Below are positions 6,665 to 64,000 of a stretch of 64,000 nucleotides of DNA, piece by piece. The stretch's first letter is position 1. Each line of letters opens with the position of its first letter. Source of the stretch: Patescibacteria group bacterium (GTDB lineage: Bacteria > Patescibacteriota > UBA1384 > XYA2-FULL-43-10 > 1-14-0-10-43-13); NCBI GenBank assembly GCA_041671645.1, contig JBAZBD010000001.1, forward strand, positions 799,234 to 863,233, written 5' to 3'. The translations under genes and the position numbers were made by a program. Under the pieces are notes generated by a model. That model was given only the letters and a program-made list of their open reading frames with translations, was not told where the DNA came from and ran no database searches.

Positions 6665-6666
6665 AA

Positions 6667-16300: not shown

Positions 16301-19300
16301 GAAGTCTTGCTGGTATCCCACCTGGAGAGGAATTGGAGGGCAAAGTTGGCCGTGACGGTGATATCAACGGTGACATTGGTGTCGGTGCGGGCGGCAGTAG
16401 TATTGGCATCTGACCAGTCTACGAAATAATAGCCAGCTGCTGGGGTAGCGGTAACTTGTGAACCGTTGGCACCGTAGTCAACAGTCTGTGGCGATGTACC
16501 AACAACTGAACCATTCGATCCAGCGTTGTAGGTCAAGGTGTAGGTGTTGATAGCAAATGTAGCCGTAACTGAAATATTATCAGCAACATTGAGATCAGTT
16601 CGAGCCGCGGTCATGACATCATCAGACCAAGATACGAAATGGTAGTTAGCAGCAGGAGTAGCGGTAACTTCTGAGCCGCTTGAGCCATGGTCAACAGTCT
16701 GGGGGGTGGTACCGACAATCGAGCCATTGGCGCCAGCAGAGTAAGTAAGAGTGTGGGTGTCGATGGCAAAACTAGCAGTCACTGCGATATCACCTGCTAC
16801 GTTTGAGTCAGTACGAGCAGCAGTCATGACGTCATCAGACCAAGATACGAAATGGTAGTTCGCAGCAGGAGTAGCGGTAACTTCTGAGCCGCTAGCGCCG
16901 TGATCAATGGTCTGAGGGGTGGTACCGACAATCGAGCCATTGGCGCCAGCAGAGTAAGCCAAAGTATGAGTGTCGATTGCGAAACTAGCCGTTGTCGTAA
17001 TGTTGGCCGTGACGTTGGTATCCGTTCGGACTGGATTAGTAGAGTCATTGTCTGACCATTTGACAAAATGGTAATTGGCGGCAGGAGTGGCAACAACTTC
17101 TGAGCCGCTTGACCCATGGTCAACAGTCTGAGGAGAGCTGCCGATAACTGATCCGTTGGCGCCAGAGTTATAGGTAAGGGTGTAGACGGCCAAGGTTGAT
17201 TGGTCGGCAGTAGCAGAATAAGCAGTCGCAACACTATCGCCATTTGTAGCGGCCACGGAGAAAGTATATAGGGTGTTGGCGGTCAGACCGGTCACGGTCT
17301 TGCTCGAACCCCAGGTCGCATAAGCTTGCCAGACAGCTGAATCGCCGAGTGTGCTGTTGGCTTGAACATATTTCGTCGTAGCGCCGTAGACTACTTTGAT
17401 GGCATAAGTCGTATTGGATGGATTGGAGTTTTGGGCAATCAGGACTGGAATAGTAGTCGAAGTGACTGTACCAAAAGTTGGAGTGCCAGGTACATTAGCC
17501 AAAGTATACTTGGCAGCAGTAGAGCTAAATGCTGTTTCGGTATTGTCACCATTTCTAGCTTTGACTTTGTAGGTGTATTGAACATTTGGACTCAAGGAAA
17601 CATTGTCAAATCCAGAAGCACCACCCCAGGCGGCATAGTTTTGCCAGTCTTCAGAAGCTTGATTGGTGCCGTCTGCATGTTTGACATAATTCCAAGTACT
17701 TCCGCCATCAGCTGAGACAGCGATAGCATAAGTAGTAGAAGAGTTGTCAGTAAGTTTGATATTGATGACGCTAGCAGATGAAGCAGCTAGGGTTGGAGCG
17801 TCAGGGGCGGCGGCAAGGGTGTATTTGGGCGCAGCATATGCTGGAGCAGAATCGCCAATTGCATTGGTGGCGATCACCTTGGCACAATATTGAGTATTGA
17901 TTGATTTACTCGTAATAGCTTGGCTAATAGCGCCAGCGGCAGTCGTATAATCAGGAGTGCCAGAGTAACTGGCGGCCGAACAATCAGCATTGCCAGCGGC
18001 AGTATAGACCTTGAAGCCGGTCTCGTTGCTGGAAGCGTCAGTCCAAGTCACTGTAAATCCAGTGGTAGTCAGCGTCCCAATGGCAACTGTGTTTGGCTCC
18101 GTTGGGGCAACGTCGACTGTGGTCTGAGCAGTTCCGCTAGATAGAGCGGTCTCAACATTGTCTCCGTTCTTGGCTTTAACTTTATAGGTATATTCTGTGT
18201 TGGCGGTGAGGCCAGTATTGGTAACTCCAGAAGCGCCACCCCAGGTAGTATAATCTTGCCAGACAGCAGAAGTATCTGAAGAACCGTCCGCCTGGACATA
18301 TTTGCTCAGAGTATCATTGTAAACGGCATAATTGGTGCCGGCTGGGTTGGAATTCTGGTTAATTTTGACGGTTAGAGAGCTCGAGGAAGTGGCGTCTACT
18401 GTCGGAGCAGAAGGTACATTAGCCAAAGTATACTTGGCAGCAGTAGAGCTAAATGCTGTTTCGGTATTGTCACCATTTCTAGCTTTGACTTTGTAGGTGT
18501 ATTGAACATTTGGACTCAAGGAAACATTGTCAAATCCAGAAGCACCACCCCAGGCGGCATAGTTTTGCCAGTCTTCAGAAGCTTGATTGGTGCCGTCTGC
18601 ATGTTTGACATAATTCCAAGTACTTCCGCCATCAGCTGAGACAGCGATAGCATAAGTAGTAGAAGAGTTGTCAGTAAGTTTGATATTGATGACGCTAGCA
18701 GATGAAGCAGCTAGGGTTGGAGCGTCAGGGGCGGCGGCAAGGGTGTATTTGGAAATCGAGTCGGTAGCTGCTGTGGTCTCTCCGTCTCCGTTTCTAGCCT
18801 GAGCGGTGTAGGAATACTGAGTATTTGGCGAAAGGCCAGTATTGGTAAGGGTATTGTTGTTGGTATTCCAAGAAGCAAAACCCGTGCCAGTTCCGGCAGA
18901 TTTAGTAATGTAGAGGCCAGATGAGCCAACGGACAAGTTGGTAAATGTGCCGGTAGCAGAGACTTGGATCGAATCAGTAGCTATCGTCCCGAAGGTGATA
19001 CCGGAAGCGGCCTCGATAGAGGAGTAGGCAGAAGCAGTAGAGGAAGCCTGGCCCAAAACTCCGTTGTAAGCACGGACGTAATTTGTATATTGAGTATTGG
19101 CTGAGAGTGAACCTTGATCATACGCCGAAGCGGATGGGCTCCCAACGTCTGAATCATCGGAGCTCTTTAGAAGTCTGTAGCTAGAGGCACCTGCGACATC
19201 AGCCCAATCCCAAGATATTTGAGAAGCGGTGTTGGCGGTGTGAGTCAAGCTTGCAGGCTGTGCCGGAGCGGAAGTAGCAGTGCCAGCAGAAGAGGCAGAA

Positions 19301-22300
19301 GTTTCGGTGGTGTCACCGTTTCGAGCCAGCGCTTTGACGGAATACAACGTGTTTGAGGTAAGATTTTTCAGGTAATTGACTGTGCCAGTTTCCCAATTTA
19401 CCTTGGTCTTCCAAACCTTTGATGCGCCGCAAGTGCCATCGCCCTGTAGCCATGAGTCTGGAGTTGCGTTGCAGGAAAGAGCAAACTCAGTCCCGGCTGG
19501 ATTTGAGTTGACATTGATTACCGCGGCCATATTATTTCCGCTGGCTGCGCTCCAATCGTAAGCAGTGACAGTGGGGGCATCTGGCGTATTAGCCAAAGTA
19601 TATTTCGGTGCAGCAAAGGCTGGATCAGAATCCCCGTCTGCATTGGTAGCGATCACTTTGGCGCAATATTGAGTATTGATAGTTTTGCCCGTAATGGCCT
19701 GGCTGGTAGCATCTGCGGCAGTGGTATAGTCTGGGGTGCCAGAATACGAAGCGGCGGAACAATCAGCGTTACCAGCGGCAGTGAAGACTTTGAATCCGGT
19801 CTCGTCGCTGGAATTATCAGTCCAAGTAACGGTAAATAAAGTAGAGTCAATCGAAGTGATCGCCACAGTGCTAGCCGCATTTGGCGGAGCCGAAGCGAAC
19901 CAGTTTACATTATTACCGGCGCTCGTAACGTTTGAACCTGAGTTATCGGTATAGATCGCAGTCGCGTTTGCATTTATCGAATCTTTCACTGAAGCATAAG
20001 AGATTGCTCTTGTGCTCTGAGGATCTATAGACCATGTAGAGCCATCAGAGGAAGAATTTAGAGAGATAACTCGACCAGAAGCTCCAGAAACCGTCAGCGC
20101 ACCTGCGATTGTTTGAGTTTTACTTGCCTCAAATTTCAAGGTTTTTGTTGTTGTCGCCCCAGGCTGTATTGTCACAGCGCTAAAAGTGGTATCGCCTGAA
20201 ATATCCTGGATGGAGCTATCTCCTCCATTGAAGACGACCGTGCCAGAATTGTGGGTGAAAGTACCAGCAGTGTGAGTGAAATCATTCGCAACGCTCATAG
20301 TGGTTGACGGAGCAGCGAAGGTACCGTCAGTTTGGATAAAACTACCCACAGTAACTGCATTTGCGCCAGAAGTGAAAGTGCCAGAGGAAACCGTTAGATT
20401 GTTCGAGGCGACAAGAGCGTCAGAAAGCGTAATTGATCCTGTCCCGCCCTGGCTCAAAACAATTTTTTTGTATGCATAGCCAGTAAAGTCACCAAGAGAA
20501 TACGGCGCTAGTCCTGTGTTTATCGTTGCAGCAACAACATTGGTTGATCCATTTATTTTGGAAACTGAATTTGCGCTGGAATTAGTAACCCAGACAAAAC
20601 CGCTTGCATCCACCGCAACACCGCAAGGAGCGCTTCCAACTGTGACTGTCGCAGCTACAGCATTTGTGGCTGTATTTATCTTGGTTACAGTATTTGTACC
20701 TAAATTTGAGACCCAAACAAAGCCGTTGGCATCAGCCGCAACGCCAAATGCATTCGTCCCCGCAGAAACAGTCGCTACAACTGTGTTTGTTGTTGGATTG
20801 ATTTTCGAAACATCACTTGTGCCATAATTCGGAACCCAGACAAAACCATTCAGATCAACTGCGACACCAGCAGGCTGTGTACCGACCGTAATAGTTGCCA
20901 CAACTGTGTCAGTCGTAGCATTGATTTTTGAAACTGTATTGCTATTAAAGTTTGCAACCCAGACAAAACCACTTGAATCGGCGGCGATTCCATAAGCACG
21001 CGCACCGACGTTCACTGTTGCTGCAATTGCATTTGTTGTCGGATTTATCTTGTACGCTACATTGTTCGTACCGCTAGCTACCCAAACAAACCCATTAGAA
21101 TCTATGGCCACGCCATAGGGATCAGAACCAATCGTAATCGAAGCATCTACGCTATTAGTGGAAGCATTAATTTTTGTTAAAGTACCGTTTGATCTGTTGG
21201 TTTGCCAAATAAACCCAGAATTATCAACAGCCACGCCAAATTCGGCCGCTCCGATTGTATGTGTAGTCACTGCGTTTGAAGATGTATCAATTTTTGTCGT
21301 CGTGGTTGCGCCAGAATTTGCAATCCACGCATAAGGAGTTGAAATCGTACCGGCCTGACCAGCCACAGTAATATTGTAAAAATCGTTGCTATTGCTAGCG
21401 ACTGTAGCAGCTGCTGTACCGTTGAAGTTTACCGTTGAAGTCCCTTTGGTGAATGTGCCACCAGTATTATTCCAGCTTCCACCAATATTTATTGTGTAAT
21501 TTCCCGCACTTAGAGTTCCCTCAGCAAGATTCAACGCTCCATCATCATTCAAATCCGCGCCGAGAGTAACCGTATCCGTGTAGCCAGTATTGATAGAGAG
21601 AGATTTGATGTGAGCAGTGAAACCGCTATCGAGAGTTGACGCCTTGGTCGAGGTGGAGTCAAAGACGACATCGCAAGCAGCATCAGGTACAGTATCAAGA
21701 GTCCAGTTCTCAGCTGTACTCCAATTGTTCCCTGTACCGCCGCCATCCCAAACACAACCAGGCAAAACGTCCCAATTGGTCACATTCACACCCTTGGTCC
21801 AGTTGGTCGGGCTTATTGGATTGGCCGCGTTATTCTTCGAATTTGAGACTGAAACATAGTCGACAGTCCACTGATTATCCATGCTCGTGCTTGGAGTGAT
21901 TTCCCATTGTGCACCAGTACCGTTGCGTTGAAGTGTTAACAAATTATCAGCGATACCGGTAGCGGTCCACTGGCCAGTCACAGTCTGATTCGTGCCTGGA
22001 TTGAAGCTGATCGTCCGAGCAGTCGAAGTCGTCATTGTAAAATTGTAAAATTCAGTCGAGCCGCCAACGACTTGGGCCAAGCTCGCAGAATTGAGCTCTA
22101 CGGTACCGTAGTTGTTGCTGAAAGTACCTCCGTCCCGAATAAAATCACCACTAACTTTCATGGTGCCGTTTGGAGCTGAAAAAGTACCAGTGTCCTGAGC
22201 AAAGTGTTTTGTCTCTACGTTGTAGCCATAAGCATTGAATGTATTCGCGAGCGTAATATTCAGCGAATGCTCGACAAGTAAAGTGTCCTGAGTCACGACT

Positions 22301-25300
22301 GTACCGTTAGCAGAGTTTGCAGATAATTGGTAGAACTGGTTGCTGCCGCATTTAACATAGTATGTGTTGGCAGAGTTGATATTGTTGATCCATACCGCGC
22401 CGTCGTTATTCACAAACGTACCACCGCCAGACATGTCGAAGAGGAAGTCAGTGGCAACATCATTGGCGTCAAGTGTTAGGACCTGGGCAGGCGCGTTAAA
22501 TGTACCGCCATAGAGATAAAAATTGTAACTTTTAATTGTAACGGTGGCTGTGTTGCTGTTGAAGGTGCCCGAGATAATAGTAGTAGAATAACCGTTCAAG
22601 ACCAAGGTTGAAGAATTGGAATTAAAAGTGCCGCCGTTTAAGTATAGTCCGCCTACTGTCACAGTGCCTGTACCAGCATTGAAAACAGCACCAGACTCAA
22701 CATAGAAGCTGCCCATGTCGCTAGAAGTAAATGTGGCAGTGGCATTGATTGTACCGTAAATATATGCGCCAGAAGAACCAACACTTGCACCTGGGGTATA
22801 AACTTTTGAAGCCGGGATATGAAGAGAATAACTAGTCGAGAGTACATTGGAACCATCGACACTGAACAAGATTTTTCCATTCGCGTCAGAACAATTATCA
22901 GCAGTCGCAAGAATAGTATTGGTCATCGGGCCAGAGTCTTCATAGGTGAGAGAAACCAGGTAAGAGTAAAGCGACAAGCCCGTGATGTCGCTAGAGCCGG
23001 CCGCAACAGTCACAATATTACCAGCTGAATAATTGCCATCTTCGAAGAAAATTGTAATAACTGTTCCGGCGGTAACACCGCCGGCGACGAAATCAAAAGC
23101 GCCATTCCCATCGGTTGCCATTGTCTGTTTTGCACCACCATTAACCGAGGCAGAAACATTTTGCCCAGAGCCAACATTCCCCTGCCCAATTCCCTGATAT
23201 GCAGTACCCGAGATATGACTGCCGAGCCAGTTGGTATTATTACTACCAGATGCAGTTGAGTTGGTCGGTGCGATTGGTCGAGAATTTAGATTGTTTGAAT
23301 CAGAATAAGTAACACGATCGACTGTCCAAGGCGACATCCCACTGGTGTTCGCATTTATCTTCCATTGGCCCGAGCCTGCAGTGCCGTTGAGCTTCATGAC
23401 AATGTTATTCCCAGCCGCGCCCTGTATTGTGAGCGCTCCAGAAATAGTCTGGGTTGAGTCTGCTGCAAAAGATAATGTCTTGCCAGCAGTGGCACAAGTA
23501 AAGCTAGAAGGAGCGTTGTCGCCAGAGATCACCGATTCTTGAGCAGTATCAAATGTCACGACATAAGGCGAGAAAGTGCCGCCAGCCGTCGTAGTCAGAT
23601 TGCGTCCGATTGTAATATCGCTACCTGAGAAATAAGCGCCTGAGCTGATAGCCGCATCGCGCCCAACAACAACTGCATAAGACGGCGATAAATAGCCGTT
23701 CGTCACAGAAAAGTCATTCGATACCGTAAAGCCAGCACTATAACCTACTGTCCCATCACCAGTGTTTGCGTAAATATAATTATAGATAGGCGGAACGTTT
23801 GTAAACGTATATGGATTGTAACTGCTATTAGCAGGAATTGAGCCAATTTTGAAAGTACCATTGGCGTTATTGAAAGTACCGCCAGAGATATTCCAAGTAT
23901 AATCACTATAATATCCGTTTGAGTCAGTTGTAATAGTCAATGTGCCCGAAGTAGATGTAAATGTACCACCGCTCATCGCAAATGATGCGTTTAGCATAGT
24001 AATCGTAGCAGTGTCACCATTAAATGTAGCACCGGTGCTAACCGTAATTTGATAATTTGATAAGGTCAAATTTGAAGTGTTAGCATTGAAAGTACCGCCA
24101 GAGAAAGTAGGAGTAGCCAAGATGTGAGTACCGCTACCAGCATTGAACTCGCCGCCAGCCTGATAAAATGAGCTGGAAAGAGTGAGGTTATTGGCTTCCA
24201 TCTCAACAATGCCATCGTTATACATACCATAGGCGTTTACATTGCCGCCAGGAGTAAACATCGTATACTGAGTGACATAAAGATCATACATAGTACTGAG
24301 AGTCGAACCAGAGACCGAGAAATCAGAGAAACAGCCGCAGTCATCAGCAATCGCTAAATCTGCGTTTGTAATAGCCCCTGCGGTATAGTCACTGTAAAGA
24401 GTGGTCTTGTATCGATACATATTGAGACCAGTTTTGTCTATGGCGGATTCAGGCAAATAGACGATACTGCCGGAATTGTAGCTCGGATCATTATCAATAA
24501 AGATGGTGACTGGTTTGCCAGCAACAAGCTCGACCCCGCTAAAGGAAAAAGTACCACCGGAGCCAGTGACGCCCGACATCTTTCCGCCACCGTTTGAGGT
24601 AATGGAAATCGGGATATCAGCGCCCAAAACGCTGCCGCCGATACCATCGTAAATTGTGCCGGAAATCGTATTGCCGCCAGAATATGTAACTGTTAATTTT
24701 GGATCGAGTGCCGTACCATCATTTTCTGCAAAGTAGCCATAGAAGTAGACACTATCATAATCGGCATTTATGGTTGGCTGACTATCTGCAGCATCAGCAG
24801 TGATTCTAAGACCAAGCTTCGTAACACCAGATGTACTAATAGCTGCTAGACCGCTTGCATTCATCGCGAAATCGTTGTATCCCATATCGTTGTAACTGGC
24901 GTACGGAATCGCAGATGCAAATGCAGTTGTTCCGAAAGTGTCGTAATCCGATGCTTGAAGCGAAGTGTTGCTAGAAGGGTTCGAGGAATACAGACCCAAA
25001 CTCGAATTCCAACCCGAAGGGTCACCCATCTTGTATGCGCCATATACGGAAAAATTGGCAGCTGAGATAGTCGCGGTGTTTGGGATGCTAGAAGTATCAA
25101 AGAGAAACGCACTTCTTGAGACGTAAGCCCAAGCAGCGTTGTTGCCAGCGGCGATTGCGGCCATATCACCGCTTGTTCCGTCATCAGCAGCGCTATATCC
25201 GCCAGACCTTATGGAAGCCCAGTCCCAATTGCTCCTACTGCTGTAAGTGTACCCATCAACAGACGTGACTTCAGTATGAGTATTTGGATAATAAATAACA

Positions 25301-27429: not shown

Positions 27430-28158
27430 TTAGTAAATTTTCTTTTGCAAATTTTGACGGATTTTCCACGAATCAACTATCATTTTGAGCCCATCTTTCA
27501 ATGGGTTGACAGTCGAATGTGGATCATCGTGCCAGGTGATCCCCTCCTCCTTTATTTTGTATCCTAATTTTTTGGCAATAGCTAAAACTTCAATATCGAA
27601 AGAGAAGTCAAATATGGTCAGCTTCTCGAAAATCGCTCCGGCCGCCTCTTTCGAAAATAATTTGAAACCGCACTGTGTGTCTTTGATCCCAGGCGTCACA
27701 AGGGCTTGGATCATCCAGTTCAAAGCTCGGCTGCCCGCTCTTCGAGTGAATGACTGTGGGATGGCTAATTTGCCACCTTTGCAGTATCTGGAGCCGATGA
27801 CGACATCGTATTTATCGATATGGGCAAGAAGTTTGTCGACCTGTTCGATTGGGGTAGAATTATCAGCATCGGCGAATAACACATACTGGCCCTTTGCCAA
27901 TTTGATTCCGTCCTGCACTGCACCACCCTTCCCGCGGTTCTGTTCGCCTTCGTAGATCACCAGATTCGGAATTCTGTCCACAAAATGTTCGGCGGAGCCA
28001 ACCGTGTCATCAGGGGATGCATCAATTGCAACTATCGTTTCGACGATGAAGTCTTTGGTTTTAACATATTTTTCTATCGCTTCCAGAATAACGTGGATCC
28101 GTTTTTCTTCACGATATGCCGGAATCACAATTGATAAATAGATTTTCTCGTCCATCAA
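27430..28158 (-). CDS. GT2 polyprenol-phosphate glycosyltransferase (DPM1/GtrB-like), 242 aa.
   Basis: Matches the dolichol-P-mannose synthase family through LSIVIPAYRE, the DAD motif (FADADNSTP) and GSRY. Confidence 0.8.
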   Translation of the reverse strand: MMDEKIYLSIVIPAYREEKRIHVILEAIEKYVKTKDFIVETIVAIDASPDDTVGSAEHFVDRIPNLVIYEGEQNRGKGGAVQDGIKLAKGQYVLFADADNSTPIEQVDKLLAHIDKYDVVIGSRYCKGGKLAIPQSFTRRAGSRALNWMIQALVTPGIKDTQCGFKLFSKEAAGAIFEKLTIFDFSFDIEVLAIAKKLGYKIKEEGITWHDDPHSTVNPLKDGLKMIVDSWKIRQNLQKKIY

Positions 28159-29993
28159 AGTCCTATTTTGTGATTAATATTTGGTCTGGGATAATCAAGA
28201 TATTTGATCGGATACGGAGATTTGGGCGGATGTTGCTTCAAGTCTTCCGGAGTAATGTTGTAGACCAGGATAGAGCCACCAATAATCGCCTTTGGCTTAA
28301 TATCGTCAAGCCAGTTGTACGACCATTTGCCCTCTTCTGGACCACGTAATTTTGACAATTGATAGAAAGTCGCAGAGACAGCCAACCAGCCCGTAGTGGG
28401 TCCGTAGCTAGAATGCCAGTCTGTACGACTTGGCAAGTAATAGGTGGGGACTGAACCGAAATAATCCACCTTAATATTCGTGATATTATTGTCGCCTACG
28501 TATTTCTTGAGTCGGAGAAAGTCCTGGCCCCAATCAAGTGAAGAGTCAACTAGCCTGGTGTAGCGCTTGTCTTTGGGGGTGAGTTCATTGAAATACGCGA
28601 TGAAATTAGGGAAATTTGAGATTGTTGAAACAGCTAAATATGCCAGAAGAATAACTAGGGCGATCTGCATCCGACCCAGTTTCCGCCAATTCCAGCTGGG
28701 ATTCACAATTGGATAAATTGCATAACCGATCATCAATAATACGAAGGGAATCGTTGGCATGAGATGACGAATACCAATGTTCAGCGAACCCTGCAATGTG
28801 ATAGCCCAGTAAATAACCCATGGCACGATTAGGAGCGAGAGCATCCATTTGATTTCTTTTTGCTTTGGCCAATTACGAATTATCGAATAAACAGAAAAGA
28901 AAAACATAGCTATGATTGGTAAGGGAGTTTTGAGCAACCAAGCGACCGGGAAATACCAGGGGATTGATTTGTCAGAAAGATGACCCCAAATAAAGGTTGC
29001 ATTGCCACCGCCAACACGGCCGATAACTAGGAATATTCCCAGGATATAGTGGCCAAGTGCTCGCAAGTACGGATTATTTTCAAATAAGTGGAGAAAGTTT
29101 CTAAGGGGCAAAGTCCTCGCATCGGACGTCATATTTGTGTCTATCAATTGATGCTCGATAGCAGGCGGAGTCTTCCAAACCAAAGGTAGGTAAACCAACC
29201 AGACGACCACCAATGAGATCAGACTGACATATACTAGAGGCATGAAATTTGCAACAAAATTATGCCGGAAGCCTTTCTCCTTTCTATCCAAAACGGCCCG
29301 AACTACCACGAGAATGAAGAAAATCGGGAACAGCAAAACCCCAGAAAACTTTAGGAGTTCAGCTATCCCGAGCGCAACTCCGGCAAGCAAAATGCTCGAC
29401 AAAGTTTTCTTAGTGACCGCCTTGTCAAAGGCATACGTCGCCAAGACAAAACCAAATGCCGCCGCTACGTCGGTAGTGACTAGCCGGCCGTGAGCGATGA
29501 CGTCAGGGTAAAGCGCATATAGGAAAAGGATGACTACGCCGACTTTCCAGCCGAAGAGCTCAATCGCCCACTTGAAGAGCAACAGGCCCAGCCCAATCAT
29601 GAGCAGCATCATCGGAAGTCTGGCAAGAGAGAATACTTCGGCAGGATCGTTGCCTTGACGATAAATCATGCTCCAGCCCGATTCCCATTGGTTTATGTCT
29701 TTGAAGCTTGAATCGTCCTCTGGACCCTTGATCTTACTATTCATGACGAGAGGAACACCGGCCAGAACTTTCGCCAGAGGCGGATGCTCTGGATTCAATC
29801 GATAATCTTGATCTTTTAAGTAGGTATAGCCAGCGGGAATATGTGCGATTTCATCGACAATAGCAGAATCACCCGGCGTGTTTCCGATCCCTCGGGAGGA
29901 AAATAGGGCGAGCAAGAACATAAACAGGAGAATCCCCGCAGGCACGAAATATTTATATTGTATTTTACTGCAGATCCTCTTTAGCAATTTCAT
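28155..29993 (-). CDS. GT-C glycosyltransferase of PMT_2 / GT39-like type (phospholipid-carrier-dependent, YkcB/ArnT-like), 612 aa.
   Basis: DEIAHIPAGYTY...NPEHPPLAKVL is the DE-x-H plus PPL signature of PMT/ArnT-type GT-C enzymes. About 11 TM helices and a C-terminal soluble domain are present. It overlaps the neighbouring genes by 4 nt and 29 nt. Confidence 0.7.
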   Translation of the reverse strand: MKLLKRICSKIQYKYFVPAGILLFMFLLALFSSRGIGNTPGDSAIVDEIAHIPAGYTYLKDQDYRLNPEHPPLAKVLAGVPLVMNSKIKGPEDDSSFKDINQWESGWSMIYRQGNDPAEVFSLARLPMMLLMIGLGLLLFKWAIELFGWKVGVVILFLYALYPDVIAHGRLVTTDVAAAFGFVLATYAFDKAVTKKTLSSILLAGVALGIAELLKFSGVLLFPIFFILVVVRAVLDRKEKGFRHNFVANFMPLVYVSLISLVVVWLVYLPLVWKTPPAIEHQLIDTNMTSDARTLPLRNFLHLFENNPYLRALGHYILGIFLVIGRVGGGNATFIWGHLSDKSIPWYFPVAWLLKTPLPIIAMFFFSVYSIIRNWPKQKEIKWMLSLLIVPWVIYWAITLQGSLNIGIRHLMPTIPFVLLMIGYAIYPIVNPSWNWRKLGRMQIALVILLAYLAVSTISNFPNFIAYFNELTPKDKRYTRLVDSSLDWGQDFLRLKKYVGDNNITNIKVDYFGSVPTYYLPSRTDWHSSYGPTTGWLAVSATFYQLSKLRGPEEGKWSYNWLDDIKPKAIIGGSILVYNITPEDLKQHPPKSPYPIKYLDYPRPNINHKIGL

Positions 29994-53698: not shown

Positions 53699-54565
53699 TT
53701 ATAAGCTGTTTCCAAGTTTTGATCGCGATAATTTACCCGCCTTGTCGATTTCGAAGCAGATGTCCCCGTCCTGATCGGTGCGGGAGATTTGGATATTGTG
53801 CTGATTCAGCCCATCGAGCGTTTCCTGGTTGGGATGACCGAATTGATTGTTTAGCCCATCTGAAATGACAGCAAACTCTGGATTTGCTTTATCATAGACA
53901 GAGCTTAAATAAGCATTTTTGGAGCCGTGATGGGCGACTTTGACGACTGACTCCTTGGACAAATTCGGAAGCAGATCAGACTGTCTATCCGCTTCGATGT
54001 CACCAGTAAGGAGGAAACAATTTTCTTGGGCGCAAAAATCCAAGACGAGCGAAGAGTTGTTGAGATTGTCAATTTTCTGCTTCACATATTCTCCTCCCGG
54101 ATAGAGAAAGCGAATCTGGCCAGGTGGGACTTCAATTGTTGAATCAATTTGTGGCACCGACAGGGACAGATTTTTGTCCTTCAAACTGTTCAAAAACTTT
54201 AGATATTGATCTGACTCAGCCACCACTCCAGTGCCGTAAACCTGACCAACGGTGTAGCGAGCTAAGACTTCATTGATCCCGACAATGTGATCGGCGTGTG
54301 GATGAGGAAGTATGATGAGATCGATTTTTCTGTCTTCCAGAGCCATCATTTTCGGTAATTTTTCCAAGACTTTGGCATCTGGCCCGCCGTCAATTAGTAT
54401 TTGGAAATCGCCCTTGGATATCATGGCCGCGTCTCCTTGGCCAACGTCGAAATAACAAACTTTGGTCAAGTCTGTGGCTGGAGAATTGAAAATCAGAAAG
54501 ATAAAGGAAATCGGCAGGAGCAAAGATACCATGATTATTTTTTTGGCGTGTTTTCTCATGATCAA
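53699..54565 (-). CDS. comEC: ComEC/Rec2-type metallo-beta-lactamase domain protein (C-terminal module of ComEC encoded as a separate gene).
   Basis: Own N-terminal TM. CYFDVGQGDAAM and LIILPHPHADHIVG form the MBL-fold HxHxDH motif. The ATGA overlap with the upstream ComEC membrane gene implies translational coupling. Confidence 0.75.
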   Translation of the reverse strand: MIMRKHAKKIIMVSLLLPISFIFLIFNSPATDLTKVCYFDVGQGDAAMISKGDFQILIDGGPDAKVLEKLPKMMALEDRKIDLIILPHPHADHIVGINEVLARYTVGQVYGTGVVAESDQYLKFLNSLKDKNLSLSVPQIDSTIEVPPGQIRFLYPGGEYVKQKIDNLNNSSLVLDFCAQENCFLLTGDIEADRQSDLLPNLSKESVVKVAHHGSKNAYLSSVYDKANPEFAVISDGLNNQFGHPNQETLDGLNQHNIQISRTDQDGDICFEIDKAGKLSRSKLGNSL

Positions 54566-56001
54566 AAAGTTAGCGAAGCTAGCGGAACACGAGCTAAATA
54601 ATGAATTGCCAAGATAACGTATTCGAGCATCGGCCAGAGCAGGAGGGCAATGGCTTGAGCGAAAGGCGCCCAGATGAAGCCCAAAATTATGGCGACAAAA
54701 GTGAATAGCATGATCCAGGCCACGCTCCAGACGACCAAGAGATTGGCAATCGGCGAGATCAATGAAATTGTTCGGAAATTGTAGAAAATGATCGGAATTA
54801 CGGCGAGCTGAGCCGCCAGAGTCTCACAGGTCATCTTGGCGAAGTCAGGTGTTTCGGAACGCTTCGAGATTTTTTGATACAAATCAGAGAGCAATGGAGC
54901 GAGATATATGATACCGATGAAAGCGGCGAATGAAAGTTGGAAGCCGAGATCATAGAATAATAGATACGGATTTTGCAGCAACATAACAAGCGCAGTCAGA
55001 GTCAAAATATTGAGCTGATCAGCCCTCCGGCCGTAAGTCGTGCCGAAAAGAATCAGCATCGAGAAGATTCCGGCTCGGACAACCGAAGCGGAGCATCCGG
55101 TCGCCAAGATGAAAATGATGACGAAGATTAGTCCGGCCCAAAACGATCTCTTCTTGCCCAGAAACCCAGCAAGGACCCAGGCTAGAGCGATCGTAATGAT
55201 AGTGACGTTAAATCCCGAAAGAGCCACGATGTGAGTCAGCCCCGTTTTCTGGAGATCATCCTTCAGCCCCTGGCTCATATTGGATTGGCTGCCAAGCAAG
55301 ATTCCACTAGCGAGCGAGGCGTGTGGCTCAGGCAGGGATCGGCTGATCAGACTGGCTGATTTCTCTATTGCCAAGAAGAGCGCACCCTTAACCGTCACCC
55401 AGATAGAGCTATCCTGCCCAACGATCGTAATCTGCTCGCTCTCTAAGATGCCATAAATCCCCTTCCCTTTGAGATATCCTGGATAATCAAAATCTTCAAT
55501 TTTCTCTGGTTTGACTATTTTCCCATTAATCTCTAATTTGTCGCCATATCGATAAATCGGAAAAACTGGAGCCTTCAGAAGCAAACGAGTTTTCTTGCCT
55601 GCCTCGGCGGCAGACGGGCCATTTATATCCGCCAGTACTGTCAATTTTTGATTGGTCGCCGTCACCGCCGGTCGCTCCGCCACGACGACATTAAAGCTCG
55701 CGCTTTGGTCAAAAATGAGGCTGGGCGTGCTTTTGTAGGAAAAATATGATAAATAGAAAAGTCCAAGGGAGAAAAATAAAAAGGCAAAGGAGATCAGGAC
55801 CAGCCCCCGTAATTTAAGAAGAAAATTGATGAAAGCGGTCAGAATGAGAGCGCAAAATAGAAAAATAAACAGACGGAAATCTGCTAAATAATTGAGAGTC
55901 AGGAAATTCGCAAAAGTTAGGCCAACCAAAAATGAGATCGCAAGAACTGTGAAAAGACGAAAGGGATAAAATAAATTCTCCCACCAATCTTTGAAAAGCA
56001 T
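54562..56001 (-). CDS. comEC: ComEC/Rec2 membrane channel module (DUF4131 plus Competence domain).
   Basis: Polytopic membrane protein with THIVALSGFNVTIITIALAWVL (ComEC 'SGxH' region). The combined size with the MBL gene, about 767 aa, equals canonical ComEC. Confidence 0.75.
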   Translation of the reverse strand: MLFKDWWENLFYPFRLFTVLAISFLVGLTFANFLTLNYLADFRLFIFLFCALILTAFINFLLKLRGLVLISFAFLFFSLGLFYLSYFSYKSTPSLIFDQSASFNVVVAERPAVTATNQKLTVLADINGPSAAEAGKKTRLLLKAPVFPIYRYGDKLEINGKIVKPEKIEDFDYPGYLKGKGIYGILESEQITIVGQDSSIWVTVKGALFLAIEKSASLISRSLPEPHASLASGILLGSQSNMSQGLKDDLQKTGLTHIVALSGFNVTIITIALAWVLAGFLGKKRSFWAGLIFVIIFILATGCSASVVRAGIFSMLILFGTTYGRRADQLNILTLTALVMLLQNPYLLFYDLGFQLSFAAFIGIIYLAPLLSDLYQKISKRSETPDFAKMTCETLAAQLAVIPIIFYNFRTISLISPIANLLVVWSVAWIMLFTFVAIILGFIWAPFAQAIALLLWPMLEYVILAIHYLARVPLASLTF

Positions 56002-56061: not shown

Positions 56062-56538
56062 ATGAAAAGCAAAAAAGTACAACCAGATACAACAATAGAA
56101 TCAGAGCAAAAGATTGCCGAGCTGACCCTTGGCTGGCAGAGAACTCAAGCTGATTTTCAGAATTTCCGACGCCAGGTCGAGTTAGATCGGCAGAAACTGC
56201 TCAAGACGGCTAGCGCCCAGGTGCTGGAAGATATTTTGCCGGTGTTGGACAACTTCCAGCTTGCGGCCAAGCACGCTCCGGCAGAATTGGAAAATAATAA
56301 TTGGGTTATCGGCATCAAACAGATCGAGAAACAGCTCGAAGGCATCCTGGCCAACGAGGGCTTGGTAAAAATAGAAACAATCGGCCAACAATTTAACCCA
56401 GAATTTCATGAAGCAATCGAGCATCTCTCCTCCGACAAACCAGAAAATGAAATTGTGGAAGAAGTTTCGTCTGGCTACACTTACGAGACCATCGTCCTCC
56501 GACCAGCAAAGGTAAAGGTCTCTTCAGGAAAACAATAA
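56062..56538 (+). CDS. grpE: Nucleotide exchange factor GrpE.
   Basis: Coiled-coil N-terminus, LEDILPVLDNFQLA and the C-terminal beta domain. Confidence 0.9.
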   Translation: MKSKKVQPDTTIESEQKIAELTLGWQRTQADFQNFRRQVELDRQKLLKTASAQVLEDILPVLDNFQLAAKHAPAELENNNWVIGIKQIEKQLEGILANEGLVKIETIGQQFNPEFHEAIEHLSSDKPENEIVEEVSSGYTYETIVLRPAKVKVSSGKQ

Positions 56539-56664
56539 GCCCTAATTTACAGAAGAACCAAAAAAGTCGGCCTAGCCGTCTTTTTTGATAGGGGGTCTTG
56601 ATCCGTCCTTCGTTAAAACTACGGAGGATCAACCCCTCCGTAGCTCCTGCGGAGCAAAGGGGGG

Positions 56665-56694
56665 TTGACAAAATGTAAAGTCTACTTTACATTT
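56665..56694 (+). promoter_or_regulatory. dnaK promoter (TTGACA-N17-TACATT) overlapped by a perfect 11-bp inverted repeat, AAATGTAAAGT-ct-ACTTTACATTT, a candidate heat-shock operator.
   Basis: Consensus -35 hexamer. The inverted repeat spans the spacer and the -10 element. It is neither CIRCE nor HAIR. Confidence 0.4.
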
Positions 56695-56727
56695 TAGATA
56701 GTATTATTTTATTAACAAGGAGTTCAT

Positions 56728-58632
56728 ATGTCCAAAATCATCGGTATCGACTTAGGTACCACCAACTCAGCTGTCGCTATTATGGAAGGTGGCGAAGCCA
56801 AGATTATCACTTCCTCAGAAGGCGGACGAACCGTCCCCTCAATCGTGACTGAGACCAAAAAGGGCGACCGATTAGTCGGTCAATTGGCCAAGAGACAAGC
56901 TGTCACAAATGCAGAAAACACTGTTTTCTCGATCAAACGTTTCATCGGTCGTAAGTTCGACGATGCTGACGCACAGGCAGATATCAAGAAAATGCCTTAT
57001 GGCGCCAAGAAGGCCTCTGATGGATCGATCCGAGTCAGCATGATCGGTCAAGAGTACAGCCCACAAGAAATCTCTGCCTTCATCTTGCAGAAATTAAAGA
57101 CCGATGCTGAGACCTATCTCGGCGAGAAAGTAACAGAAGCCGTCATTACTGTGCCTGCCTATTTTAATGATGCTCAGCGCCAAGCGACCAAAGATGCTGG
57201 CAAAATTGCAGGTCTCGAAGTCAAAAGAATTATCAACGAGCCGACCGCGGCCGCTCTTGCTTACGGACTAGACAAACAGAAGAATGAAAAAATCGCTGTT
57301 TACGACCTCGGTGGCGGAACATTTGATATTACCATTTTGGAGCTGGGCGATGGCGTTTTCGAAGTCAAAGCAACCAACGGTGACACTCATCTCGGCGGCG
57401 ACGACTTTGATCAGCGAATCATGGACTACATTATCGATGAGTTCAAGAAGGATCAGGGCGTCGATCTACACGCCGACAAAGCAGCAGTCCAAAGAGTCAA
57501 GGAAGCAGCCGAAAAAGCCAAAATTGAGCTCTCGACCGCTCTTGAGACTGAAATCAACCTACCTTTCATCACCGCTGATGCCTCCGGTCCAAAACATTTG
57601 ACCCTGACAATCAAACGCGCTGATCTCGAAAAAATGGTTGGCGAGTTGATCGAAAAGACGATGAAGCCATGCCAGAAGGTCTTGGACGACGCTAAGATGA
57701 AAAAAGAGGATATCAATGAAGTGATCCTGGTCGGTGGCATGACACGTATGCCAGCCGTTCGTGAGGCAGTCAAGAAATTCTGGGGCAAAGAGCCAAACCA
57801 TTCCGTCAATCCTGACGAGGCCGTCGCTATCGGTGCCGCTATTCAGGGCGGAGTCTTGGCTGGAGATGTCAAAGATTTGCTCCTGCTAGACGTGACTCCA
57901 CTCTCTCTTGGAATCGAAACTTTGGGCGGTGTCTCGACCAAATTGATCGAGCGCAATACTACTATCCCAACCAGCAAATCACAGATTTTCTCTACCGCAG
58001 CTGACAATCAAACTTCTGTAGAAATTCATGTCTTGCAGGGCGAGCGCGAAATGGCCGCCGACAACAAGACGCTTGGCCGATTCATGCTTGATGGCATTCC
58101 ACCTGCCCCACGCGGCATTCCACAGGTCGAAGTTTCCTTCGACATTGACGCCAACGGCATTGTGAATGTCAAAGCTACCGACAAAGCAACCAACAAAGAG
58201 CAGAGAATCACTATTACTGCTTCGAGCGGACTATCTGAATCTGAAATTGAAAGAATGAGAAAAGAAGCCGAAGAGCATGCTGACGAAGACAAGAAGAAAA
58301 AAGAGGCTGTCGAAGTCAAAAATATGGCTGACACATTGATCTATACTGCTGAAAAGACACTAAAAGACGCAGGAGACAAAGTTGATTCTAACTTGAAATC
58401 TGATGTCGAGCAGAAAATCCAAGCCTTGAAGGACGTCAAAGACAAAGATAATCTCGAAGAGATCAAGACCCAGACAGAATCTCTCAGCACTGCTCTGCAG
58501 GAAATTGGCAAGAAGATGTACGAACAGGCTGCCAAAGAGCAACCAAAAGCCGACGGTGCGAAGGAAGAGGAAAAGGCCGAAGAACCCAAAAATAATCCGC
58601 CAGCTGGCGGAGATGAGCCAAAAGCTGAATAA
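56728..58632 (+). CDS. dnaK: Molecular chaperone DnaK (Hsp70).
   Basis: [18 protein letters not shown] and the rest of the canonical Hsp70 sequence. The RBS is AAGGAG. Confidence 0.97.
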
Positions 58633-58748
58633 TTTGCTTCCATATTTGCCCTCTATTGCTTAGAGGGCAAGATGGAGTTAAAATTATAGAGATCTGGTTT
58701 TGTCCGATTTCAACTTAACATGGAGGGTCCCCTCAGGGGGAAAGTTTT

Positions 58749-59408
58749 GTGAATTTGTTTCGTAATCCTATCTTTATACTTTTCTTCGTCGTCGCCCTAA
58801 TCGTGTCGATCGTCTGGAGTTATATTTCGAACAAGAAAACTAATACTCCGGTCACGACCGAGACGACTGAGACGACAACAACAGACACACCCAAGGTGAC
58901 CAATCTGACAAACCTTGACCCTGTCGACTTCGACTCGACCTTGAAGGGATATCTCGATATCGCAGCCACTAAGTCAGCGGAGATCAACAAGGATTACAAG
59001 TTGGCCGATATCGAAGTAGAGATAGGCCAATCCCTCCAACCAGCCGACGCCACTATTCGATATGCGTACAATCTCGGGGCCACAGACACAAGCAATTGGA
59101 TAATTTCATTTGCCCAGGACACCGGCAGTTATGTTCGTTCGCTTATCCCAAGTGAGGATTATCTCGGCCACCCCAAGCAGATTGACACGACACTCTGGAA
59201 ATTTAATTACGTCACCGCTCTGCAATTGGCTGAGAAGAATGGCGGCCTCGAATACCGTGAGAAAAATTCTGACTTTTCCAGCGTCAAAATGAGTTTGAAA
59301 CATACTGGCGAAAAAGCCTGGCTCCTCTGGAGTGTGGAGTACAAAGGTACGACCAGCGGCCTAACTGTCCTAATCGACGCAAACTCAGGTGACAAAGTCA
59401 CTCAATAA
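58749..59408 (+). CDS. Membrane-anchored protein with PepSY-like repeats, 219 aa.
   Basis: GTG start. N-terminal TM and a Thr-rich linker. WLLWSVEYKGTTSGLTVLIDANSGDKV resembles the PepSY motif. Confidence 0.45.
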   Translation: MNLFRNPIFILFFVVALIVSIVWSYISNKKTNTPVTTETTETTTTDTPKVTNLTNLDPVDFDSTLKGYLDIAATKSAEINKDYKLADIEVEIGQSLQPADATIRYAYNLGATDTSNWIISFAQDTGSYVRSLIPSEDYLGHPKQIDTTLWKFNYVTALQLAEKNGGLEYREKNSDFSSVKMSLKHTGEKAWLLWSVEYKGTTSGLTVLIDANSGDKVTQ

Positions 59409-59493
59409 AGCAGTAATATATAAGCTTATAAGTCCGATAAGCGCTCTGCTACTTGCTTACCAACTTAGGATTTATAGCTAATTGCTTATTTTT

Positions 59494-60144
59494 ATGTCAA
59501 CAGATTATTACAAAACTTTGGGTGTCTCAAAATCGGCCTCGGCCGAGGAAATCAAAAAAGCTTATCGAAAGCTTGCTTTGGAGCACCATCCTGATCGAGG
59601 CGGCGGCAACAATTCCGACGCCAAGTTCAAGGAGGTCAACGAGGCCTATCAGGTCCTCTCTGACCCCGAGAAACGCAAGACATACGATCAGTTTGGCGAT
59701 GCCGCCTTCAAAAACGGTGGAGCTGGGGCTGGAGGCTTTGGCGGATATCGACAGGGCGGATTCCAGGGCGACTTTTCTGATTTTGACTTCTCTGGATTCG
59801 GATTTGGTGGAGGAATTGGAGATATTTTTGAAGACTTTTTCGGCGCCCAGATGTCTCAGGTCCAAGCCGAATTACAAATTTCCCCTGCTCAGGCCGTACT
59901 TGGGGATAAAGTTTCCGTCCAGATCAATGGCGAGAATCTGGAGTTCTCTCTTCCCGCAGGCACAAACGATGGCACTTCATTCCGTTTTCAGGGCAAGGGT
60001 CGTGCAACACGAAATGGCCGCAAAGGAGATCTCATCCTAACAATCAAAATTGTAATGCCAAAACACCTGACAAAGGAACAGCAAGAACTCTGGCAACGTC
60101 TCCGCGACGAAGAATCCAAGAAAAAAGGTTGGTGGGGCGCTTAG
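59494..60144 (+). CDS. dnaJ: J-domain co-chaperone (DnaJ/CbpA-like, lacking the zinc-finger domain).
   Basis: DYYKTLGV...HPDR J-domain, a G/F-rich region and a single C-terminal DnaJ_C-like domain. No CxxCxGxG repeats are present. The ATG at 59494 is preferred over the TTG at 59482. Confidence 0.75.
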
Positions 60145-62304: not shown

Positions 62305-62387
62305 GTATAGCTCAATTCGCTTCGGAGGACACTTCGACACGACTGACCGATCTGTCGACTCGTCTACAAGGAGCTAATCATTTCTTT

Positions 62388-62413
62388 AAACGCCTCACAT
62401 ATGTGAGGCGTTT
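62388..62413. repeat. Palindromic hairpin element AAACGCCTCACATATGTGAGGCGTTT, copy c of the repeat family.
   Basis: Differs from copy a at one base pair (G-C versus A-T). It lies downstream of the minus-strand gene ending at 62451. Confidence 0.6.
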
Positions 62414-62450
62414 AACACAGTGCCCGTATCGGATAGAGAACGAAATAATG

Positions 62451-63812
62451 TTAGTTGAAATGGTTAATATCGTTGTTATTGTCCACGACAGGATTCTCTG
62501 TTTCTGGAGTCGGAGTCGAAATTGGAGGTGCAGTTGAGGTAAAGGTGGAAATTGGGGTAGCTGTGATTGTAGCAGGGGTGGATCCTTGAGCGCGGCCTGT
62601 CATTTTCAGATCTATTTTTCTGTTTCGATAGAGAAAGAATCCCAGCAATAGCAATCCGAGTAAAAGAGCGACGCTGCTCCAAAACCAAGGGTTCTGAAGT
62701 AATCCGGAAGACCAATCATTCTGAATCACGATTGGAGTTGCATAGGCTTTCTCTGGATCGACCTGAAAGGTAAGTTCGTCTGCCGCTTTGGTCGTCTCTG
62801 TCGCTGTAGTAGAGAGTGCATATGCTTTATGGACGCCCGCTTCTATGCCGTCGCTGACTGTGATACTCCATTTGCCCTCTGCATCGGTTGTGACAGATTT
62901 TGTGATCAGTGTGCTAAAGACATAGACTGTCACAAGAGAGTTCGGCTTGGATATACCCTTAAAGGTTAGATTGGTTAGAGATTTTTTGTCTTGAATGTTG
63001 GCGACAACTGCTTGGTCAGAATTTAATAATATTGTGGTTTCTGAACTAGCGCTAATCTTTTTGATTTCTTTTTGAAATTTCTTCTCGCTATCTGGCATTG
63101 TCGGCGCGACTAGTACGGGCGCCTCTGCTGTAGCTGGAACTGGCGTCTCTGTCATGACGGCTGGTGTCTCTGCTGTCGCGGCGGGTGTCGTAGCAGCAGG
63201 GGTAGCAGTTGTGGCAGAGCTTGGAGTGGTGGTCTTTTTGGTTGTGCTTGGAGTTGTGGGTGTAGTATCGGCTGGGTTGGTAGCTGGGACATCTGGTGTT
63301 GTCGGAGTATCTGGTATCGGGTCTGGGATGACTGGTGCTGCCGCTATGGTGTAGCTACCTCCTGAGACAGAAGACAAAATATTGGCTGGTTCATCGCCTG
63401 AGCTGACGACTTGGCCACCCGACAAGGAAATTGTGGCTGTGCCGGCATTCGTGCCTTTGACTACCAAAGTGTAAACGGTAATGGTACCAACACCATCACC
63501 AGTCGAACCACAGCTGAAACTTAGCGATGGGGTGCTTGGGTCGGTAGTACACATAGAAACGGAGCCTTTGGTCAGGCTCACCACGGTCAAGTTGCTGACT
63601 GATACGCTTGCCTTGTAAACCGACATATTTTGGCCGCCGCCATCTGCAACGATACCAACTGAAAATTCCTCGCCGACAGTATGGCTACCTGTTGCTGAGC
63701 TCACCGAAATTGTGGCTGTGTTTGCTGCCCGTATAGGGGTAATTGCTCCAAAGATAGCAACTATCGCTGAGATAGTGACAATAGCACTAGTTTTTTGTAT
63801 TACGTTGAACAT
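62451..63812 (-). CDS. Membrane-anchored surface protein with an N-terminal cohesin-like domain, a Pro/Thr-rich linker, an Ig-like domain, a C-terminal TM and a cytoplasmic tail.
   Basis: Signal peptide. About 120 aa (ATISVSS...GTITVYTLVVKGTNAGTATISLSG) has a cohesin-like beta-sandwich pattern. PTTP repeats are present. The TM WFWSSVALLLGLLLLGFFLY is followed by RNRK. The ATG at 63812 has an AGGGAG RBS. Confidence 0.5.
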   Translation of the reverse strand: MFNVIQKTSAIVTISAIVAIFGAITPIRAANTATISVSSATGSHTVGEEFSVGIVADGGGQNMSVYKASVSVSNLTVVSLTKGSVSMCTTDPSTPSLSFSCGSTGDGVGTITVYTLVVKGTNAGTATISLSGGQVVSSGDEPANILSSVSGGSYTIAAAPVIPDPIPDTPTTPDVPATNPADTTPTTPSTTKKTTTPSSATTATPAATTPAATAETPAVMTETPVPATAEAPVLVAPTMPDSEKKFQKEIKKISASSETTILLNSDQAVVANIQDKKSLTNLTFKGISKPNSLVTVYVFSTLITKSVTTDAEGKWSITVSDGIEAGVHKAYALSTTATETTKAADELTFQVDPEKAYATPIVIQNDWSSGLLQNPWFWSSVALLLGLLLLGFFLYRNRKIDLKMTGRAQGSTPATITATPISTFTSTAPPISTPTPETENPVVDNNNDINHFN

Positions 63813-63826
63813 ATCCACTCCCTAAA

Positions 63827-64000
63827 TTATTTATTCCAGTTTGTAAGTAAGGTCGCAAAGTCTAGTTCATCCACAACCCTATCTCTATTGTAGTCAGCCA
63901 TTACATTCTTTGGTGCACCCCAGTTTCCAAGCATACTAGCAAAGTCAAGCTCATCGATGGCGCCATCATTATTTATATCGCCACTTTTGTGGATGATGAG
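63827..64000 (-). CDS. C-terminal end of a dockerin-containing protein (the gene continues beyond the window).
   Basis: The minus-strand translation ends ...GDINNDGAIDELDFASMLGNWG...ADYNRDRVVDELDFATLLTNWNK*, two canonical dockerin Ca-binding repeats. Confidence 0.6.
   Translation of the reverse strand, partial: LIIHKSGDINNDGAIDELDFASMLGNWGAPKNVMADYNRDRVVDELDFATLLTNWNK

Follow-up and report, generated by a model that had tools for sequence, protein, structure and literature searches.

The stretch of DNA analysed here, referred to below as the window, comprises 64,000 nucleotides (64 kb) from a Patescibacteria group bacterium (assembly GCA_041671645.1, contig JBAZBD010000001.1, positions 799,234 to 863,233). 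At its right-hand end it carries, on the minus strand, the last part of a gene whose product terminates in a dockerin and, 14 nt further downstream, a complete gene for a 453-residue protein with a signal peptide, a cohesin-like N-terminal module and a C-terminal transmembrane (TM) helix. In our judgement what is seen here is probably the distal end of a Patescibacteria operon for cell-surface proteins, its products forming a non-cellulosomal tethering pair of cohesin and dockerin in which the two adjacent modules would bind one another and so tether a cargo protein. An arrangement of anchor plus cargo had already been proposed in a first-pass annotation of the window, and recurrence of the same dockerin-cohesin gene order in the genome sequences of relatives lends it independent support. 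The label “cellulosome-style” that was attached to the pair fits its tethering logic but does not otherwise hold, since no carbohydrate-active enzyme (CAZyme) was found with it, either among the window ORFs scanned or in relatives; it is this lack of enzymes that leads to the description of a non-cellulosomal surface-tethering pair.

Among high-affinity protein connectors, cohesin-dockerin pairs are some of the best understood, and functional work on them has been almost entirely concerned with cellulosomes. Here the same connector would form a conserved operon in minimal-genome Patescibacteria, a group whose biology is believed to rely on surface contact with other cells. A TM-anchored single cohesin with a co-encoded dockerin cargo provides a concrete hypothesis for how large surface proteins may be displayed; the pair may also connect to an essential dockerin protein of a cultivated Saccharibacterium. 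The value of this particular locus is nonetheless moderate, as the domain families are known, the relatives have been annotated automatically and the cargo lies outside the window.

The dockerin-ending gene

Only the 3' end of the upstream gene falls within the window, as the last 57 codons and the stop (63827-64000, minus strand; TAA at 63829-63827), the remainder lying beyond the edge at position 64000. Minus-strand translation of 63826-64000 gives LIIHKSGDINNDGAIDELDFASMLGNWGAPKNVMADYNRDRVVDELDFATLLTNWNK followed by the stop, and the C-terminal dockerin sequence within it is ...GDINNDGAIDELDFASMLGNWGAPKNVMADYNRDRVVDELDFATLLTNWNK, then TAA. The two textbook dockerin repeats that had been noted here are borne out by profile analysis: Pfam PF00404 (Dockerin_1) matches residues 7-51 of the 57-residue fragment with 29.5 bits (E 8.6e-7), above its gathering threshold of 22.9 bits, and a profile built from 67 dockerins of relatives, all encoded next to cohesin genes, gives the window dockerin 30.2 bits. 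A type I dockerin is defined by a tandem pair of ~22-residue repeats, in each of which an EF-hand-like calcium loop is followed by a helix, and this is the organisation seen. Repeat 1 (DINNDGAIDELDFASMLGNW; 63920-63979, minus strand) and repeat 2 (DYNRDRVVDELDFATLLTNW; 63836-63895, minus strand) share the same loop pattern, with Asp or Asn at loop positions 1, 3, 5, 9 and 12; the calcium loops DINNDGAIDELD and DYNRDRVVDELD are each followed by F-A-x-x-L-x-N-W, and a D-E-L-D-F motif common to both repeats makes the module near-symmetric. When a regular expression for the calcium loop was run over translations of the window in all six reading frames it found two matches, namely these two repeats, and no second dockerin was detected elsewhere in the window by the dockerin hidden Markov model (HMM).

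The N-terminal module of the adjacent protein

The check that the first-pass annotation had itself suggested, a search of the cohesin-like region with Pfam PF00963, was negative: neither the 453-residue protein nor its isolated N-terminal module gave a match at E<=10, which leaves the module formally outside the curated HMM (gathering threshold 24.1 bits), and an NCBIfam scan of the same two sequences gave no cohesin match. However, more sensitive evidence overrules this result, and the Pfam miss is best regarded as a failure of sensitivity, because the module is homologous to proteins that do pass the threshold, is recognised by a leave-one-out profile and is predicted to adopt a fold whose closest structural matches are cohesins.

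As regards homology, a search of 5.8e9 sequences with the 453-residue protein returned, apart from itself, only matches that align to the N-terminal module (E 1.6e-5 and 4.8e-5). The better of these, P0002, aligns to residues 3-156 of the window protein with 28% identity (E 1.6e-5 database-wide), and its equivalent domain passes PF00963 with 31.7 bits against the required 24.1. Identity between the window cohesin and the cohesins of this family is 28-33%, and 28-32% to proteins in which the corresponding domain lies above the Pfam threshold. Sequences recovered with a three-sequence profile amounted to 8,919 cluster representatives at E<=1e-3 (3,471 at E<=1e-10), many of them proteins of 480-600 residues with a cohesin domain at about residues 30-170; PF00963 is matched by 50 of 68 aligned family members and is carried by most matches of an indexed search. 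A family profile from which the query had been left out scores the window module at 49.8 bits (E 1.7e-17). The same three-sequence profile found nothing meaningful in a sequence search of the PDB, while scans of genome contigs and of metagenome contigs with the 453-residue protein as query gave no match.

Structure prediction points the same way. The AlphaFold2 (AF2) model of the module, computed from the family alignment, is all-beta with a predicted local distance difference test (pLDDT) value of 91.3 and a predicted template-modelling score (pTM) of 0.84, and when it was compared with the PDB using Foldseek the top 48 matches were all cohesins (TM-score 0.63-0.81). The best match is 2xdh, a non-cellulosomal cohesin of Archaeoglobus fulgidus (E 1.2e-10, TM-score 0.77); by TM-score, 4dh2, the OlpC cohesin of Clostridium thermocellum, ranks highest (0.81). 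The predicted model can be superposed on solved cohesins, the fold of which is a nine-stranded beta-sandwich (jelly-roll); it has neither helix nor flap insertions and may thus be described as type-I-like. On this combination of profile and model evidence the N-terminal module is a divergent cohesin. The cohesin reading of the first-pass annotation is thereby sustained, although its extent had been put at roughly the first 120 residues of the mature protein, whereas the module spans 131 (residues 30-160; 63333-63725, minus strand).

Architecture of the membrane-anchored protein

The cohesin gene occupies 62451-63812 (minus strand, stop codon included). Its 453-residue product is identical to NCBI MFA6963933.1, labelled “MAG: Ig-like domain-containing protein” (MAG standing for metagenome-assembled genome), and the same call is found in a Logan assembly. 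An open reading frame (ORF) list places the start at GTG 63818, 8 nt past the stop of the dockerin gene, which is the spacing originally given. The ATG at 63812 is preferred, however, since a Shine-Dalgarno sequence, AGGGAG (63818-63823, minus strand), sits 5 nt before it; the gap of 8 nt is therefore correct for the listed start only, and with the better-supported start becomes 14 nt. So short a gap suggests co-transcription, and the two genes are probably co-transcribed.

Residues 1-29 (MFNVIQKTSAIVTISAIVAIFGAITPIRA; 63726-63812, minus strand) form a putative signal peptide, on the evidence of an AxA-like cleavage site, IRA|AN, and of a hydrophobic peak over residues 9-27, in agreement with the earlier description. 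After the cohesin module comes a linker (residues 161-236; 63105-63332, minus strand) in which 16 Pro, 23 Thr and 14 Ala account for much of the 76 residues, in keeping with its having been called PTTP-rich, and then a membrane-proximal Ig-like domain (residues ~237-360, structured core ~280-355; 62733-63104, minus strand). The latter, also correctly recognised at the outset, scores 25.9 bits with Pfam Big_13, just below the cut-off of 27, and is homologous to the membrane-proximal domain of the ~570-600-residue members of the family; its core is predicted by AF2 to be a beta-sandwich (pLDDT 75-95), and the core model matches Ig-like, fn3 and bacterial Ig adhesin folds in the PDB at E of about 1e-3.

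The TM helix (WFWSSVALLLGLLLLGFFLY, residues 376-395; 62628-62687, minus strand) coincides with the strongest hydropathy peak of the protein (residues 376-394), again as first described, and the RNRK directly after it is what the positive-inside rule would predict. The predicted cytoplasmic tail (residues 396-453, 58 residues; 62454-62627, minus strand) had been termed basic, but this is true only beside the membrane (RNRKIDLKMTGR): over its whole length K+R and D+E are both 5, and beyond the juxtamembrane part it is rich in Thr, Pro and Ser. No LPXTG motif is present in the 453-residue protein, nor any Pfam match to the S-layer homology (SLH) family.

Beyond the cohesin gene, 36 nt past its stop codon, lies a perfect 30-nt palindrome (TTAAACGCCTCACAT/ATGTGAGGCGTTTAA; 62386-62415), with 15-nt arms and no spacer. 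It has no T-tract, and a terminator scan found no intrinsic terminator after the cohesin gene; the palindrome may form a hairpin that marks the end of the operon, or may serve for protein binding.

Gene order and domain content in relatives

Loci of relatives were collected from GTDB species-representative genomes in a scan seeded with a 15-sequence alignment, which yielded 80 loci belonging mainly to one subfamily, that of P0002, the members of which are 58-80% identical to P0002 itself. All 80 come from MAGs of uncultured bacteria, nearly all labelled as Patescibacteria lineages; most carry the labels Paceibacteria, Kaiserbacteria, Nomurabacteria, Parcubacteria, “Saccharibacteria” or Patescibacteria group, for a few the label is simply “bacterium”, and for one it is Legionellaceae.

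Where at least 4 kb of upstream DNA was available, a same-strand ORF of ~620-670 residues with a C-terminal dockerin was found 0.5-1.5 kb upstream of the cohesin gene in 57 of 59 P0002-subfamily loci, and no further dockerin-profile matches occur among the ORFs of those ~20-kb loci. A gene for an HSP20-like (alpha-crystallin) protein lies between the dockerin and cohesin genes in every one of 67 P0002-subfamily loci (L004, L009-L088); HSP20 is an odd partner for two exported proteins. Tight linkage of the two genes is conserved across several subfamilies. At the P0003 locus the order is Big_13+dockerin protein (505 residues), a 329-residue protein, then the cohesin protein (591 residues); in L004 it is dockerin protein (560 residues), HSP20, cohesin protein (500 residues); and in L089 a dockerin-ending ORF is followed by a 339-residue cohesin-like TM protein and then a 582-residue cohesin protein. 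L091 and L007/L008 contain a DUF4215+dockerin protein, a second membrane cohesin, a cohesin protein of ~585 residues and a cohesin+dockerin protein of 216-230 residues.

These last proteins (L007 8001-8693, L091 10518-11168) have one cohesin-like module and a C-terminal dockerin and adjoin membrane cohesin genes, which suggests that they are adaptors in a hierarchical, enzyme-free cohesin-dockerin network; a second membrane cohesin together with a cohesin/dockerin fusion protein, as seen at some loci, is just the content to be expected of such an assembly network.

As for what the dockerin proteins of relatives carry besides the dockerin, only Big_13, Big_6, DUF4215 or no domain was found, and no catalytic Pfam domain; a sequence search of the PDB with one of them (560 residues) gave no match. 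Neighbouring genes in relatives encode WxL-interacting-protein-like membrane proteins, fn3 proteins, giant repeat proteins and MacB-type ABC transporters. In L004 (839-5422) and L007 (12732-13808) the dockerin and cohesin genes are flanked by several genes for proteins of 320-390 residues that have both a signal peptide and a C-terminal TM helix; one of these proteins scores 26.7 bits, against a threshold of 27.3, with the WxL-interacting-protein peptidoglycan-binding domain PF06030, and they resemble the WxL/Csc surface-complex clusters of Gram-positive bacteria.

The window protein shows the hallmark combination of this family (signal peptide, N-terminal cohesin, membrane-proximal Ig-like domain and C-terminal TM helix) and its gene shows the family gene order, with a same-strand dockerin-ending gene directly upstream across the 14-nt gap. 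To judge from the genome sequences, the cohesin family has thousands of representatives, mostly Patescibacterial, and the pairing of a dockerin gene with a membrane cohesin gene is a common and conserved feature of Patescibacteria; it follows that the arrangement cannot be called unexpected in an organism with a minimal gene set, as had been done at first.

Proposed mechanism and alternative interpretations

In the mechanism that we propose, the cohesin protein would be a type I membrane protein, its signal peptide being removed and its C-terminal TM helix fixed in the cytoplasmic membrane, while the Ig-like stalk and the 76-residue Pro/Thr linker, possibly glycosylated, would project a single type-I-like cohesin outward. 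The product of the upstream gene, once secreted, would plug its C-terminal two-repeat calcium-binding dockerin into this cohesin, presumably in a calcium-dependent manner, and would thereby stay attached to the cell surface without a covalent bond. If the relatives are a guide, the cargo may be a structural or adhesive protein made of Ig-like domains, not an enzyme.

There are several points that weigh against this interpretation and that should be considered together. Of the cargo gene only the last 57 codons can be seen, and among the 5.8-billion-protein collection no protein shares three 5-residue words with the 57-residue dockerin fragment, even though the neighbouring 453-residue cohesin protein is present there, from NCBI, JGI and Logan; in public annotation, therefore, the upstream gene may have been left uncalled, be a pseudogene or be unusual in some other way. 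The Logan contig that carries the cohesin gene is 2.4 kb long and terminates within the dockerin gene. Given the Pfam miss, the dockerin-binding face of the window cohesin may have diverged. The window protein is moreover an atypical member of its family, without the middle fn3-like domain or domains and with a tail unlike the conserved coiled-coil tail of relatives, and no HSP20-like ORF was found in the window. Lastly, most of the synteny data come from one orthologous group, so that the loci are not phylogenetically independent.

The likeliest alternative is that both genes encode genuine surface proteins of one envelope operon but that each has other partners, the anchor capturing dockerin proteins encoded elsewhere in the genome (small cohesin+dockerin adaptors or giant surface proteins, for instance) and the adjacent dockerin binding another cohesin. 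Partners in cellulosomes are often encoded apart, and the loci of relatives include cohesin+dockerin adaptor-like proteins and more than one cohesin protein (two cohesin-like ORFs in 11 of the 80). We nevertheless think it unlikely, given that in the best-sampled subfamily each ~20-kb locus that has a dockerin-ending ORF has just one, always immediately upstream of the cohesin gene, and that in the window the two genes are only 14 nt apart, with no other cohesin or dockerin in the 64 kb.

It could also be that the cohesin-fold module binds no dockerin at all, being instead a beta-sandwich for adhesion or glycan binding, perhaps on a host cell, while the neighbouring dockerin acts as a calcium-stabilised terminal module or binds glycans or a host, and the adjacency of the genes reflects no more than shared regulation. 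The module does fall below the Pfam cohesin model, and adhesins with cohesin-like folds but no known dockerin partner exist, as in the CLIPPER domain (9ifr, which is Foldseek match 49 of the window model) and TMEM132 (PMC6030884); in addition, a study in Cell in 2023 raised the speculation that host glycans are the target of a dockerin protein essential to a Saccharibacterium (PMC10633639). This is a still less likely explanation than separate partners, as the 48 structural matches that rank above the CLIPPER domain are dockerin-binding cohesins, and as the strict recurrence of a dockerin-ending gene beside the cohesin gene in several subfamilies, together with fusions of both modules, would be hard to explain if the two did not interact.

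A true minimal cellulosome, with the dockerin protein a glycoside hydrolase displayed for degradation of plant polysaccharides, is very improbable. The cohesin and dockerin families were first defined in cellulosomes, and the N-terminal part of the cargo lies outside the window; however, neither the dockerin proteins of relatives nor the neighbouring genes yielded any glycoside hydrolase (GH), carbohydrate esterase (CE), polysaccharide lyase (PL) or carbohydrate-binding module (CBM) domain, no CAZymes were found among the window ORFs scanned (the neighbours examined being chaperones, ComEC, glycosyltransferases and a giant repeat protein), there is a single cohesin and not a multi-cohesin scaffoldin, and the host is a Patescibacteria bacterium. 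With no enzymes found, this possibility was rejected. Chance juxtaposition or a spurious ORF, for which only the failed direct Pfam cohesin match speaks, has a negligible probability and was rejected on account of conserved synteny, which extends across dozens of species, the identical gene call in two independent assemblies, the strong ribosome-binding site, the high-confidence fold and the significant homology also standing against it.

Returning to the tethering pair, it is tempting to place it in a wider scheme, though one that we regard as rather doubtful at present, in which Patescibacteria carry a conserved enzyme-free assembly system whose membrane cohesin anchors, cohesin+dockerin adaptors and dockerin-tipped Ig-repeat proteins build the surface apparatus by which these ultra-small cells attach to hosts. 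The corresponding genes of relatives sit beside those for giant surface proteins, WxL-interacting-protein-like proteins and a MacB-type ABC exporter. Such a system, if real, would explain the essential dockerin protein of Southlakia epibionticum, and the window would then represent its stripped-down core of anchor and cargo.

Other features of the window

A giant ORF of 6,627 residues (7390-27273, minus strand) contains fn3, NHL, about ten divergent InlB B-repeats (Flg_new_2), DUF285 and Ig_Rha78A_N-like domains, and neither dockerin nor cohesin was found in it. Relatives have a giant protein (>6,296 residues, Ig_Rha78A_N/DUF2341) encoded directly 3' of the cohesin gene, a position from which the giant gene of the window is some 35 kb removed. 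Directly downstream of the latter (4447-7386, minus strand) are genes for a 239-residue fn3/Pur_ac_phosph_N-like protein and for a fused MacB-type ABC transporter (ABC_tran, MacB_PCD and FtsX; 679 residues), and the same module of fn3 protein plus MacB ABC transporter is found 3' of the cohesin gene in L004/L006. With the giant gene and the fn3/MacB module both away from the cohesin gene, the surface cluster seems to have its modules in separate parts of this genome. Just upstream of the giant gene (27430-29993, minus strand) are encoded a family 2 (GT2) glycosyltransferase (242 residues) and a membrane protein resembling the PMT_2/PMT-family protein mannosyltransferases (612 residues; 28155-29993); it may be speculated that these are candidates for O-glycosylating Pro/Thr-rich linkers such as that of the cohesin protein.

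Elsewhere, ComEC is seemingly encoded as two ORFs with a 4-nt overlap (53699-56001, minus strand), one with Competence and DUF4131 domains (479 residues) and the other a metallo-beta-lactamase domain protein (288 residues). A grpE-dnaK-dnaJ cluster (56062-60144, plus strand) is interrupted by a gene for a 219-residue membrane or secreted protein with no family match (58749-59408), and the DnaJ of the window has only 220 residues, with a J domain, part of the C-terminal domain and no detected zinc-finger region. A 601-residue protein with PsbP-like domains (PF18933, PF01789; 51804-53609, minus strand) is unusual for a non-photosynthetic Patescibacteria bacterium.

Comparison with known systems

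Neither the families nor the tethering principle is new, since the domain families are known and the relatives have already been machine-annotated as cohesin-domain proteins. Cohesins and dockerins outside cellulosomes have been recorded from all three domains of life, and Peer et al. in 2009 reportedly dealt with a wider range of “noncellulosomal cohesin- and dockerin-like modules”. No description of the conserved dockerin-gene/membrane-cohesin operon was found in full-text searches of the literature on dockerins and cohesins in the candidate phyla radiation (CPR), Patescibacteria, Parcubacteria, Saccharibacteria and episymbionts. The closest mention concerns the Saccharibacterium Southlakia epibionticum, in which SEML1_0315, a protein with a dockerin domain, is essential by transposon sequencing (Tn-seq); the authors of that work, who did not mention a cohesin, read it as possibly targeting glycans (PMC10633639).

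In having one surface-anchored cohesin for a dockerin-bearing protein, the system proposed for the window resembles the single-cohesin anchoring scaffoldins, such as OlpC of C. thermocellum (4dh2) and ScaE of Ruminococcus flavefaciens (2zf9). Cellulosomal anchoring scaffoldins, however, are attached by SLH modules or by a sortase LPXTG signal, whereas the window protein has a TM helix and neither kind of wall anchor; their cargo consists of scaffoldins and enzymes, whereas no enzymes are seen here, and they belong to different host lineages. Cohesins of the ScaE type also carry extra helix and flap elements that are absent from the window cohesin model. The best structural match, 2xdh of Archaeoglobus fulgidus, is alike in that such modules occur outside any cellulose-degrading context, but it is archaeal and has another protein architecture, and we know of no conserved operon of membrane anchor and upstream dockerin described for it. 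The cohesin-like modules of Clostridium perfringens (2jh2, 2w1n and 2vo8; Foldseek matches 27, 40 and 44) likewise use a non-cellulosomal cohesin fold for protein-protein assembly, but do so inside large secreted glycoside hydrolases and not on a dedicated membrane anchor. The 216-230-residue proteins of relatives, with one cohesin and a C-terminal dockerin, recall the adaptor scaffoldins of complex cellulosomes, although they are small, single-cohesin proteins with no enzyme link, and none is present in the window.

Within Patescibacteria, the family of membrane-anchored “cohesin domain-containing” proteins found in MAGs of Paceibacteria, Kaiserbacteria and Nomurabacteria (P0002, P0003, P0078 and P0100 being examples) differs from the window protein in that the linker of the latter is long and of Pro/Thr type and its tail Thr/Pro-rich, and that no HSP20 or second cohesin gene intervenes between its gene and that of the dockerin protein; the two nevertheless share the signal peptide, the cohesin at the N-terminus, the Ig-like domain next to the membrane and the TM helix, as well as a dockerin-ending gene just upstream on the same strand.

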